Source: Escherichia coli O127:H6 str. E2348/69
GTDB lineage: Bacteria > Pseudomonadota > Gammaproteobacteria > Enterobacterales > Enterobacteriaceae
Length of the DNA stretch: 64,000 nucleotides
Assembly (NCBI RefSeq): GCF_000026545.1
Contig: NC_011601.1
Reading direction: 5' to 3' (one strand)
Part shown: positions 3,001 through 6,000 of the stretch, piece after piece
How positions within the stretch are numbered: position 1 is the first letter of the stretch
Layout of the letters: every line of letters begins with the position of its first letter
Program-made: the position numbers

Positions 3001-6000
3001 GAGTATGGCGCGGGAGGGCGCGACGGTGACCGGTCTGGATATGGGCTTTGAGCCATTGCAGGTGGCAAAACTGCACGCACTGGAAAGCGGCATTCAGGTG
3101 GATTACGTGCAGGAAACCGTGGAAGAGCACGCGGCAAAATATGCCGGACAGTATGACGTGGTGACCTGTATGGAGATGCTGGAGCACGTCCCCGATCCTC
3201 AGTCAGTGGTCAGAGCCTGTGCGCAACTGGTGAAACCGGGCGGCGATGTCTTTTTCTCGACGCTTAACCGCAACGGCAAGTCATGGCTGATGGCGGTGGT
3301 TGGTGCTGAATATATTTTGCGCATGGTGCCTAAAGGTACACATGATGTGAAGAAGTTTATTAAACCGGCAGAATTGCTGGGCTGGGTGGATCAGACCAGT
3401 CTTAAAGAACGGCATATGACCGGGCTGCATTACAACCCTATCACTAACACCTTTAAGCTCGGCCCAGGCGTGGATGTGAACTATATGCTGCACACGCAGA
3501 ATAAGTGAGGTTGTTGTTTGGATTCATCCGGCAACCGCGCCAAGCCTGATGCGACGCTTGCCGCGTCTTATCAGGCCTACAAATGCTCCCCGTAGGCCAG
3601 ATAAGGCGTTTACGCCGCATCCGGCAACAGTGCCGGTCAGACAGCGATTACCATTTCACTGTCATCGACAAAAACCCTGCCGTCTGGGCAAAATCATCAC
3701 TCCCTTTCTGCCACGCCACGCTACCACGCAGCGAAACTCGTTGACTGATATTGCCCGTTATTCCCACTTTTATTTCACCCCGTTGCTTCGCCGCATCGTC
3801 ACTGATAGTGCTGCCATCCTCTTCAATTTCCGTCGCATGGGGATCGTGATAATAATTCAGATCTAACGTTGGCGTGACACCAACAGCAGTACGCCATTCG
3901 CTGTGTAAACCCAACCGCATCTGAATATCATCACCCTGCGATTGTGACACGCGCGCATGGTTAGCGGCGGTAAAATCATCCTGCTGCACGCCCTGATAAA
4001 TCACCTGCGTCTGCGGTTCAATCACCACACCATGCCCCGGTAACCACTGATAACCGGCTTCCAGCGAGGCGATAATCCCCGACGAGTGGTAATGATCCAC
4101 GCCATCGTCTTGTTCGGAAACATCATTGTTAAACCACGCATATTGCAGCCAGCTATCCAACCAGGCCCCCTGCTTCTGATTACCGTGCTGATACCAGCTT
4201 GAGGTCAGCCCAACGGCATAACCGTGGTTCTGGTTATCGGCGCGAGTTCCGGTCATATTCGAGCGGCTGTCGCCCTGGTTATCGCTGTAGCCACCAACAA
4301 TCCCAAGCATCCACTCGCCATCATCACCCCAGTGCCTGCTAAACAGATCGCCGCTAAGCTGCACCGTAGAAGTGTCTTCATGCTGAGCCAACTGCCCTAC
4401 CGCCGTGTAATGATAACGCCCGCCGATAACGCGTAAATTCAGCGTCTGACCATCGCCACCAGCGTGATCGCGTCGCTCCATCACAAATGCCTGATTTGCC
4501 GCCCGCAGGTTATTAAAATATCCACCAACTTTGGCATTCAACACCGGCTGGTAGGCAGGCGTAGGTTCCGGGTCGGGGGTTGGGTCGGGATCCGGCGTGG
4601 GATCAGGATCTGGAGTCGGGTCTGGATCAGGCGGCGGCGTCGGATTGACTTCTTGTGATCGCAGATACCAGTCGTTGTTATCTTCCACCAGCGTGTAGTC
4701 ATACGCCCCCATATTGACGTAGCCGCTTCCTGCCAGACTGAACTGCGCATTGTTTTGAAACTGCGTGGGATCAGCTGCGAAATCAACTACTTTAATACCT
4801 GTAGATGTCGGCTCACCAATCCCTGTAATGGGATTAATCACAACCGTGGTATTGCCAGCAGTATTACCGTTCAATACCAGTTGGTCGCTTGCTGAGTCAT
4901 CGCCGTTTAATTCGCTATCGAGCAGTAGCGTACCGCCGCCGGTATAATCACCATTTACCGTCAGCGTGTCGCCAGCGACGCCATTTTGCATACTGACAGC
5001 ACCGGACGTATTGGTCAGATTGCCATTAACCGTCACGTCGGAAAGATAAGTCAGGCTGTCAGTTTCAAGGTTGGTATTAAGCTCACCTGCCAGCGTCACG
5101 CCATTGGTGGCATTCACCAGCGTACCGTCGCCGCTAAACAGCGAGGCATCCAGCGCCTGGTTCGTATCCTGCTGCGTCAATCGCAACACAGTACCATCGG
5201 TTATGTCGATATCGCCGCCAGAGGTGGCATCGATTGAACGAATATCCTGATTTTGCCCGGTTTCAAAAACACCGTCTTCCCCCACCCACAGTGAAGAAAC
5301 ATAAGGAATAATATTCTCCGCTTCACCTTTTAGCGTTCCGTCCTCCACACGTACCGCAGACGTCGCAGTGCCGCTGGCGGTCAACTCCAGCGTCCCGCCG
5401 CCACTTTTAGTCAACGTGCTTACGCTATCCAGTTGTTGCCCGGTACTATCCGCCATCAACCCGCCCCATTGCGTATCTACGCCATCCTCAACGTGTATTT
5501 CGCCATCAGCGCGCATTTCAATATTCCTGCCCTGACCTGTTGTAGCCGAGCGAGTGTCAACATCAGTCGTCACATCCATTTCACTGTGTTGTTGGGGATC
5601 AGTGAAGATCACTGAACGGTTGTAACTTGTGTCCCCCAATTGCGAATTATCGCTGACTTCAAGCGTACCGGAGGCGATTTGCGTATTACCGAGATAACCG
5701 TTGTTATTCGCCAGCTTTACGCGCTGATCCCCCGCATTAATGACGACATAAACGCCATTCTGGCTGGCATCACTACCGCCAATATGTAAATCATCGCCAC
5801 TGCTGATATCAACGACATCATTACTGCCAATCACTGTCCCCCCGCTGCCGCTGATTTGCAGACCGTCATTGTATGAGCTATCGCCATCCCAGGTGGTGAA
5901 ATCAGAGAGATCCAATACTCCGCCATTTAGCACGATCGATTGCGGATCGCTCTGCATTGCCCGTAAATCGGCCTGATTCCCCGCCAGCGACAATACGGCG

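Follow-up and report, generated by a model that had tools for sequence, protein, structure and literature searches.

The Pro/Asp/Thr-rich spacer that joins the passenger of the autotransporter YfaL (EhaC) of Escherichia coli to its translocator varies in length through a coding repeat polymorphism of an ordinary kind, slow and in frame, and is not an on/off switch. Linkers of 17 to 37 residues are found across E. coli, and every change of length is in frame and lies within the repeat tract, as the preliminary description of this DNA had anticipated when it called the tract prone to in-frame expansion or contraction. The uniform repeat number that it named as the contrary outcome was not found: several length shifts separate loci with identical or nearly identical flanks. 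We consider it very probable that the spacer is an unstructured, proline-rich and acidic segment encoded by an in-frame coding minisatellite, which changes length unit by unit.

The window, the whole 64,000-nucleotide stretch of DNA analysed here, matches E. coli E2348/69 with 100% identity over the 401 bases compared, and RefSeq annotates the gene at this place as yfaL/EhaC. Its identification as yfaL is borne out by the NCBIfam equivalog NF007285, which scores 2731.9 bits against a cut-off of 1459, residues 3-1254 covering profile positions 1-1250. The product is a type Va AIDA-I-family autotransporter adhesin, organised as follows:

3648..7412, (-) strand: yfaL/ehaC coding sequence, 1254 codons plus stop (ORF list, translation, RefSeq, NF007285, Pfam).
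4689..5021, (-) strand: autochaperone domain, residues 798-908, at the C-terminal end of the β-helical passenger (Pfam AC_1 PF18883, E 1.4e-18).
4653..4673, (-) strand: DWYLRSQ motif, residues 914-920, in the last passenger strand; conserved upstream boundary of the spacer.
4557..4643, (-) strand: Pro/Asp/Thr-rich spacer PTPPPDPDPTPDPDPTPDPDPTPDPEPTP, residues 924-952, 29 aa (translation, Tandem Repeats Finder (TRF), AlphaFold).
4491..4535, (-) strand: predicted pore-spanning α-helix, residues 960-974, directly after the spacer (AlphaFold, alignment with 4mee).
3717..4436, (-) strand: 12-stranded autotransporter β-barrel (translocator), residues 993-1232 (Pfam PF03797, E 3.9e-33; TIGR01414).

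The N-terminus, MNMRIIFLRKEYLSLLPSMIASLFSGNGAAA, resembles an N-terminal Sec signal peptide, and because the alignment with NF007285 begins at residue 3, Met3 may be the true start. The signal peptide of YfaL has been given as 28 aa (PMC13101318). The autochaperone domain aligns with the IcsA autochaperone structures 3ml3 and 5ke1 and with AIDA-I (4mee), and is made of strands in the AlphaFold model. The DWYLRSQ boundary takes the form W-Y-L-x-S in homologues, where W126, Y127 and S130 are almost invariant (alignment A1). In the AlphaFold model of the C-terminal region, residues 171-185 of the 465-aa query form a helix, which is followed by the barrel (mean pLDDT 93.9); the predicted helix matches the xRPExGxYxAN segment of homologues. 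The best Foldseek match of this region is 4mee, with a TM-score of 0.92 normalised to the target. Pfam, the alignment with AIDA-I and the AlphaFold model thus agree with the preliminary description in placing the spacer between passenger and translocator, more precisely after the autochaperone domain and ahead of the pore helix and the β-barrel.

The linker had been placed at 4555..4645, and its peptide lies exactly at 4557..4643. It has the layout PTPPP-(DPDPTP)x3-DPEPTP, with four 18-bp (six-codon) units in which the synonymous sites are scrambled. Proline accounts for 16 of the 29 residues, whereas the runner-up among stop-free 29-aa stretches, with all six reading frames of the window considered, holds 9, and the tract is therefore no chance feature. 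The spacer is coil in the AlphaFold model (pLDDT 75-81), with no domain there. The repeat units noted previously are present, but the reported 'ggntcnggatc-like' motif reads on the (+) strand of the window, which is antisense and not coding; on the coding strand the units read CCN-GAY-CCN (Pro-Asp-Pro). Within the tract, which has a GC content of 70%, TRF reports an 18-bp period at 4582..4628, with 2.6 copies, 75% matches and a score of 52. On average the four 18-bp units are 71% identical to one another, where the codon usage of the gene would lead one to expect about 80%, and no exact direct repeat is longer than 8 bp. The repetition of the DNA does not exceed what the peptide repeat demands. 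Two short elements matter for the comparison with other alleles:

4570..4589, (-) strand: CCCGACCC-AACC-CCCGACCC, two 8-bp direct repeats 12 bp apart (from the sequence).
4575..4586, (-) strand: 12-bp unit GACCCAACCCCC, encoding DPTP and bracketed by the CCCGACCC repeats; single copy in the window.

Length variation was surveyed in 5,426 complete E. coli genomes; 5,419 of them give a match, and yfaL/EhaC is thus near-universal in the species. Lengths were taken from fetched loci and from record spans; the allele sequences were read directly at 19 loci. Linkers of 17, 21, 23, 25, 26, 29, 31, 33 and 37 aa were found. Frequencies were estimated as record span minus query span in two systematic samples of 60 genomes (n=120 rows of the 5,419 genomes). 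The 29-aa form is the commonest (78/120, 65%), followed by 23 aa (27/120, 22.5%), 31 aa (8/120, 6.7%) and 21 aa (3/120), with 17, 25, 26 and 37 aa at 1/120 each. The 17-aa form occurs in at least 22 genomes, the 33-aa form in 8 and the 37-aa form in one, that of strain 1105. The same variants are present in protein databases.

The indels seen, +6, -9, +12, -18, -24, +24 and -36 bp, are all divisible by three. A rough, non-phylogenetic count puts the separate indel events needed to explain the alleles at about ten within the tract of 87 bp; the flanks in the same aligned sequences, about 1,260 bases, need a single one, a GAT triplet. All fetched yfaL loci are annotated as intact coding sequences except L009, in which the note is of an internal stop and not of a frameshift. 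The change is slow and is seen between lineages. Tract length did not differ among the sampled genomes with at least 97% identity to the window (13/13), nor were length differences seen among the few re-sequenced derivatives of single strains in our lists, where the K-12 derivatives all have the K-12 length. The gene is the same as YfaL/EhaC of K-12 and O157:H7, and K-12 also has a spacer of 29 aa, with PPSPP in place of PTPPP; the allele of the window is that of B2/E2348-69, and about 9% of the compared flanking bases differ from K-12.

Alleles with perfect repeats show changes by whole units on one and the same haplotype. A second allele class, ending in '...PDPIP', is built on a perfect 18-bp unit, whose 1, 2 or 3 copies give 17, 23 or 29 aa; strain RM11911 is an example with three. 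L008 (17 aa) and L010 (29 aa) do not differ at any of 1,291 flanking columns; over the same columns, L009 (29 aa) is 1 difference and L012 (23 aa) 3 differences away from L008. Likewise, the PPLPP haplotype holds both a 17-aa (L011) and a 29-aa allele (L013), 9 differences apart. The 12-bp unit GACCCAACCCCC is present in two copies in the 33-aa alleles L017 and L018 and in three copies in the 37-aa allele L016, with 0-2 differences between L016 and the other two in 1,070 flanking bases; against the window, L016 has 21 differences over 1,070 flanking bases (23 over 1,261 in another alignment). TRF finds 18 bp x 3.1 copies with 100% matches in L009, compared with 75% in the window, and 12 bp x 3.7 copies with 100% matches in L016. 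Head-to-tail tandem units whose copy number differs on shared flanks are the marks of a coding VNTR or minisatellite. Two further patterns can be explained by allelic recombination at least as well as by slippage, judged from the alleles and their flanks: the 17-aa allele of L014 lies in a divergent flank, and the end ...PDPAPDPTP is found in two backgrounds (L002 and L004).

We propose that the tract forms an extended, unstructured spacer that would join the base of the passenger (the autochaperone and its DWYLRSQ end) to the helix plugging the barrel. Its DNA is a short coding minisatellite, with units of 18 bp (six codons) and sub-units of 12 bp, to which replication slippage or unequal exchange between units, the presumed mechanism, would add or from which it would remove whole peptide units. 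Because all units are multiples of three bases, the frame is kept and the protein stays intact through such gain and loss. The array occurs in E. coli in two states. One is old and degenerate, synonymous differences having cut exact repeats down to 8 bp or less, as in the 29-aa alleles of the window and K-12. The other is young and perfect, with copy number shifting between near-identical strains (18-bp unit x1-3, 17, 23 and 29 aa; 12-bp unit x1-3, 29, 33 and 37 aa). The window allele is almost without exact repeat, and its slippage rate is thus expected to be low. A polyproline-II helix rises by about 0.31 nm per residue when fully extended; if the spacer adopted this conformation throughout, its 17-, 29- and 37-aa forms would measure about 5, 9 and 11.5 nm, respectively. 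That a change of length alters how far the passenger projects, as was suggested in the preliminary description, is plausible.

Does the length matter to the cell? The spacer may be neutral in this respect, needing only to be unfolded and above some minimum, so that length changes would be tolerated noise with no effect on function or fitness. We give this reading a substantial chance, somewhat short of even. Homologues have spacers of about 18 to about 75 aa built from many different repeat units, AIDA-I functions with about 10 residues at this position, and the literature that we searched contained no spacer-length phenotype. The distribution in E. coli, in contrast, is narrow and peaked, with 65% of the sampled genomes at 29 aa; the degenerate array and three copies of the perfect 18-bp unit, unrelated as DNA arrangements, both give this length. 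Spacers shorter than 17 aa were not seen in the genomes sampled, and a synthetic query of four perfect units recovered no 4-copy perfect 18-bp allele in the 5,426 genomes; the count of 7 at '>=99%' for this query is an artefact, because the top rows join two-piece alignments to 2-copy alleles. The length distribution hints at bounds on the spacer, short of proof of selection. At the other extreme, selection could tune the spacer in steps of 4-6 residues to the thickness of O-antigen or capsule, the array cycling between a 'locked' degenerate and an 'unlocked' perfect state, the latter allowing rapid re-tuning. We regard this extension as unlikely. If it were true, the excess of synonymous differences between the units of the window allele would be a trace of selection for stability. 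The excess has P ~0.001 against the codon usage of the gene and a weak P = 0.03 against the tract's own codon pool, and it is not significant in the K-12 allele (P = 0.15). Given the weak result against its own codon pool and the lack of significance in K-12, we do not read the scrambled codons as evidence of selection against slippage, and treat them as a hint only.

Other explanations concern what the repeat might do for the cell, or whether it varies at all. An exposed Pro-rich repeat could be an immunodominant epitope, with changes of copy number aiding escape from antibodies, a role that has been suggested for the Pro-rich repeats R1 and R2 of Bordetella pertactin. The YfaL tract is predicted, from the structural model, to be extracellular and unstructured, which would suit such a role, but yfaL is weakly expressed in laboratory K-12, the changes are slow and follow lineages, and a change of copy number retains the peptide unit, so that epitopes are largely kept. 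Antigenic variation therefore seems improbable to us, even though pertactin alleles do vary in the number of their Pro-rich repeats (PMC8931430). The location of a repeat within a gene for a surface protein also brings to mind a contingency locus that toggles yfaL by frameshifting. Simple-sequence repeats switch genes by frameshift in Neisseria and Haemophilus, and a unit that is not a multiple of three would be the mark of such a switch. The units here are of 12 and 18 bp and all indels are multiples of 3; the near-complete set of intact coding sequences among the fetched loci and the constant length in the few re-sequenced derivatives also speak against toggling, which we hold to be extremely improbable. 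No more credible is the idea that the lengths reflect mistakes made in sequencing or assembling a GC-rich repeat: the tract is indeed 70% GC and repetitive, and the 37-aa allele is known from one genome only, but the whole array is below 120 bp, less than the length of a single read on current platforms, and different laboratories have obtained the same alleles in many independent complete genomes; the variants are also present in protein databases. The in-frame minisatellite remains the reading that we prefer.

In the wider family, we examined the best 150 representatives at 50% identity, using a search without word index and a WYL...xRPE motif pattern. The spacer could be parsed in 107 of the 150, with a median length of 35 aa and a median proline content of 29%, figures that include a few wrong parses, and many spacers are evident tandem repeats, for example of PGVTD, TEPPA, PQPQPQPVP or GPEPEKP. 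An earlier protein search was dominated by fragmentary Shigella sonnei entries and low-complexity word matches. Among 100,044 species-representative genomes, the degenerate pattern DNNDWYLRxQE matched that of E. coli only, so that no ancestral state can be inferred from sister species.

The natural spacers of 17-37 residues are a ready series in which to test stalk length against exposure of the passenger through the LPS layer, and in some lineages the perfect 18-bp and 12-bp arrays offer small markers that are easy to type. The locus shows the ageing of a coding repeat array, by synonymous decay towards stability, beside its renewal, by unit duplication towards instability. A literature search returned no paper mentioning both yfaL and VNTR. 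We also asked if it could be CVN002, a generic MLVA locus of E. coli that is probably an 18-bp repeat. The profiles of CVN002, with alleles 0, 1, 3, 8, 10 and 18 and frequent absence (PMC3407997), are unlike a near-universal locus with 1-3 copies, and the identification was dropped, short of disproof.

The understanding of autotransporters is unchanged by these results, as Pro-rich segments of variable length are already known in TibA and pertactin. The C-terminal 465 aa of K-12 YfaL, spacer included, serve as a surface-display anchor (PMC13101318). TibA, the self-associating autotransporter of ETEC, has a proline-rich domain (627-677) between a junction region and the membrane-embedded C-terminal domain (PMC3835316). 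The YfaL tract is likewise a Pro-rich, low-complexity segment between junction/autochaperone region and membrane domain, in the same architectural position; the tract of TibA is longer (about 50 aa). The Pro-rich repeats R1 and R2 of Bordetella pertactin vary in copy number between alleles (PMC8931430). Pertactin shares with YfaL the short Pro-rich repeats, the classical autotransporter architecture and the slow change of copy number between lineages, but R1 and R2 are described as loops of the passenger β-helix and have other units, and vaccine-driven selection is discussed for pertactin only. In periscope proteins, repeat stalks of variable length carry an adhesive domain off the cell surface (PMC9704523). 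As in these, in-frame changes of repeat number set the stalk length in YfaL, and the variation is found between close strains; the units of YfaL, however, are peptides of 4-6 residues in an unstructured linker, with a range of a few nm at most. YfaL acts somewhat like a periscope protein but is not a member of the group. The best solved relative of its C-terminal region is the transport unit of AIDA-I (4mee, sequence E 7e-38), in which WYL motif, spacer, pore segment and barrel follow one another as in YfaL, and about 10 non-repetitive residues take the place of the 17-37 Pro-rich residues of YfaL.

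The Pro/Asp/Thr-rich spacer of YfaL/EhaC is encoded on the minus strand of the window, where the peptide PTPPPDPDPTPDPDPTPDPDPTPDPEPTP is read from 4557..4643, so that both the peptide and the coordinates (4555-4645) of the preliminary description were right. The repetitive coding reported there also holds, although its 'ggntcnggatc-like' units are not on the coding strand: the plus strand of the window is the antisense of yfaL. The features used here are as follows.

3648..7412, minus strand: yfaL open reading frame (ORF), 1254 codons
4557..4643, minus strand: spacer peptide PTPPPDPDPTPDPDPTPDPDPTPDPEPTP, residues 924-952 of the ORF
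4575..4586, minus strand: 12-bp unit GACCCAACCCCC, bracketed by the 8-bp direct repeat CCCGACCC
4311..4331, minus strand: WGDDGEW (residues 1028-1034), another small site of in-frame slippage in yfaL (alignment with locus L008)
Residues 798-908, minus strand: autochaperone domain (Pfam)
Residues 993-1232, minus strand: autotransporter beta-barrel (Pfam)

Tandem Repeats Finder (TRF) reports an 18-bp period in the tract, with 2.6 copies and 75% matches. Pro accounts for 16 of the 29 residues, against at most 9 in any other stop-free 29-residue stretch in all frames of the 64-kb window; the tract is therefore not a chance feature. The surrounding 401 bases are 100% identical to the E. coli E2348/69 chromosome and match 5,419 of 5,426 complete E. 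coli genomes. This part of yfaL is without a match in seven of the 5,426, and one of the matches is to a record classed as a plasmid. RefSeq annotation names the matched loci yfaL, 'AIDA-I family autotransporter adhesin YfaL/EhaC', and the NCBIfam YfaL/EhaC equivalog matches the protein end to end (2732 bits, cut-off 1459). The ORF starts MNMRIIF... (first three codons 7404..7412, minus strand) and the family profile aligns from residue 3; the third codon may be the true start. For some alleles the RefSeq CDS has the longer form, for instance 3,765 nt in locus L002. A weak NCBIfam match to 'class 1 internalin InlK' (18.6 bits, cut-off 1100) coincides with the Pro-rich tract (residues 923-962) and was rejected as due to low complexity, not homology. 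The tract opens with PTPPP (4629..4643, minus strand), three Pro in a row followed by Asp; the K-12 equivalent is PPSPPD. Polyproline motifs such as PPP-Asp stall ribosomes in the absence of EF-P.

Alignment of the C-terminal 465 residues with the AIDA-I transport unit (PDB 4mee, E 7e-38) places the tract between the WYL motif at the passenger end and the segment entering the barrel. AIDA-I has only about 10 residues where YfaL has its Pro-rich tract. In an AlphaFold model (62 homologues, mean pLDDT 93.9, pTM 0.89), for which Foldseek also returns 4mee as best match, the tract is coil (pLDDT 75-81) and follows the last passenger strand, preceding a helix (residues 960-974) and the barrel. Pfam, the 4mee alignment, the model and Foldseek thus agree with the earlier label of a linker between passenger and translocator.

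The preliminary description had predicted in-frame expansion or contraction, to be refuted by an identical repeat number in all strains. Comparison of genomes gave nine spacer lengths instead (17, 21, 23, 25, 26, 29, 31, 33 and 37 residues), and the indels behind them are all multiples of three within the tract. Lengths were estimated by comparing record span with query span for each match. Two systematic samples of 60 genomes were used, ranked from the window allele and from a 23-aa allele respectively; alleles were also read directly from 19 fetched loci. Spans in the first sample differed by 0, +6, -9, -18, -24 and -36 bp, with corresponding classes in the second. As estimates from 120 genomes rather than a census, 29 aa makes up 65%, 23 aa 22.5%, 31 aa 6.7% and 21 aa 2.5%, with 17, 25, 26 and 37 aa each below 1%. 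Spacers shorter than 17 aa were not seen among the E. coli genomes sampled and loci read. About 10 separate indel events (a rough, non-phylogenetic count) are needed in the 87-bp tract, whereas the flanks in the same alignments, about 1,260 bases, contain one: a GAT triplet in locus L008 (strain SMN197SH3), which adds an Asp codon and gives WGDDDGEW where the other 16 aligned loci have WGDDGEW.

A large allele class ending in ...PDPIP is built on a perfect 18-bp unit, GACCCAACACCCGATCCT, whose copy number of one, two or three corresponds to spacers of 17, 23 or 29 aa; TRF finds 100% matches in the three-copy array. Most listed strains of this class have serotypes typical of Shiga-toxin-producing E. 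coli (O121:H19, O111:H8, O91:H21), and we infer that these strains belong to phylogroup B1. Over 1,291 aligned flanking columns the 17-aa allele of L008 shows no difference from one 29-aa allele (L010), one from another (L009) and three from a 23-aa allele (L012). A second haplotype, marked by PPLPP, likewise occurs with 17 aa (L011) and 29 aa (L013), with 9 differences between the two. When the 17-aa allele served as query, the identity was exactly 95.7% for many genomes and their record span exceeded that of the query by 18 bp, as expected if one extra unit is the sole difference. No four-copy perfect array was found among the 5,426 complete genomes. An internal stop makes yfaL an annotated pseudogene in L009 (NZ_AP042510.1, strain OkiPb01681), where the spacer itself is an intact three-copy array of 29 aa.

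A different unit varies in the B2-type allele of the window. Eight genomes have two copies of GACCCAACCCCC (33 aa) and one genome has three (37 aa, the only length class resting on a single genome). The flanks of these alleles differ at 0-2 of 1,070 positions among themselves and at 21 of 1,070 from the window (23 of 1,261 in another alignment). The 25-aa allele equals a 31-aa allele minus 18 bp, and the 21-aa allele is a 24-bp deletion whose flanks differ at 22 of 1,291 positions from a 31-aa allele; both fit gain or loss of whole or partial units.

It is the perfect arrays that are seen to change length, and they look like the product of recent duplication of a single unit. In the window and K-12 alleles, four units encode the same peptide and most synonymous sites differ. 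Units of the window tract have a mean identity of 71%, and no exact direct repeat is longer than 8 bp, which leaves little for slipped-strand pairing. This degenerate array appears stable; all 13 of 13 sampled genomes at least 97% identical to the window share its spacer length, and the K-12 derivatives among the listed matches all have that of K-12. Third-codon identity between units of the window tract is 0.14, below an expectation of about 0.36, and the four Pro codons are used near-evenly, against 45% CCG gene-wide. Measured against the codon usage of the gene, the surplus of synonymous differences in the window allele reaches nominal significance (P ~0.001); the signal is weak with the codon pool of the tract itself as background (P = 0.03), is absent in K-12 (P = 0.15), and is taken as no more than a hint that DNA-level repetition is avoided. 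We propose a cycle in which duplication would lead to instability and then to synonymous decay. Slippage is not the whole explanation, because the L014 allele has divergent flanks and L002 and L004 share an end motif in different backgrounds, which points to allelic recombination also being at work. A phase-variation switch is ruled out by the 12- and 18-bp units; no frameshifted tract was seen among the E. coli alleles examined. Assembly artefact was likewise rejected, since one sequencing read is longer than the array and identical alleles recur in many independent complete genomes.

Since the tract is extracellular by autotransporter topology and predicted to be unstructured, it is reasonable to infer that spacer length would affect the distance of the passenger from the outer membrane, as first suggested. 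A fully extended polyproline-II helix rises about 0.31 nm per residue, and in that form 17, 29 and 37 residues would span about 5, 9 and 11.5 nm. The length distribution is narrow, with its peak at 29 aa, at which two unrelated DNA arrangements both arrive. This narrow peak, with neither four-copy arrays nor spacers below 17 aa, fits selective bounds on length and a short history of change equally well, and a purely neutral spacer is a serious rival.

A search of the C-terminal 465 residues against 1.84 billion representative proteins places the tract in its family. Among the best 150 matches, a motif pattern located a WYL...xRPE spacer in 107, with a median of 35 residues and 29% Pro (a few parses are wrong). 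Many are plain tandem repeats of other units (PGVTD, TEPPA, PQPQPQPVP, GPEPEKP, PDPDPxP); a Pro-rich, repeat-prone spacer at this junction is therefore common in AIDA-I-type autotransporters. YfaL of this form seems to be restricted to E. coli and its closest relatives: at the DNA level the sole carrier of DNNDWYLRxQE among 100,044 species-representative genomes was the E. coli representative (L019, SCPM-O-B-8794; 31-aa spacer with PPSPPEPDP). In P0121, the nearest 50%-identity cluster at 57% identity, the spacer is different (VADVPDVDPTPDVTPTPDAPVTPDVPGVPSTPDFTP). Shigella sonnei contributes dozens of distinct YfaL entries labelled 'partial' (560-644 aa, among P0026-P0120). Most of them stop where a contig of ~1.9 kb ends, and some lie on contigs of ~8 kb; the gene appears to be interrupted in these assemblies, perhaps by an insertion sequence.

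Our literature search found no paper naming both 'yfaL' and 'VNTR', and the generic E. coli MLVA locus CVN002 behaves differently and is probably not this tract. The preliminary observation is confirmed, and the testable part of its interpretation supported. The result is a well-documented coding repeat polymorphism in a Pro-rich autotransporter spacer, of a kind already known. TibA has a described 'proline-rich domain' at the same place in its architecture (PMC3835316), the number of Pro-rich repeats differs between pertactin alleles (PMC8931430), and the general idea that repeat number sets stalk length is that of the Periscope proteins (PMC9704523).
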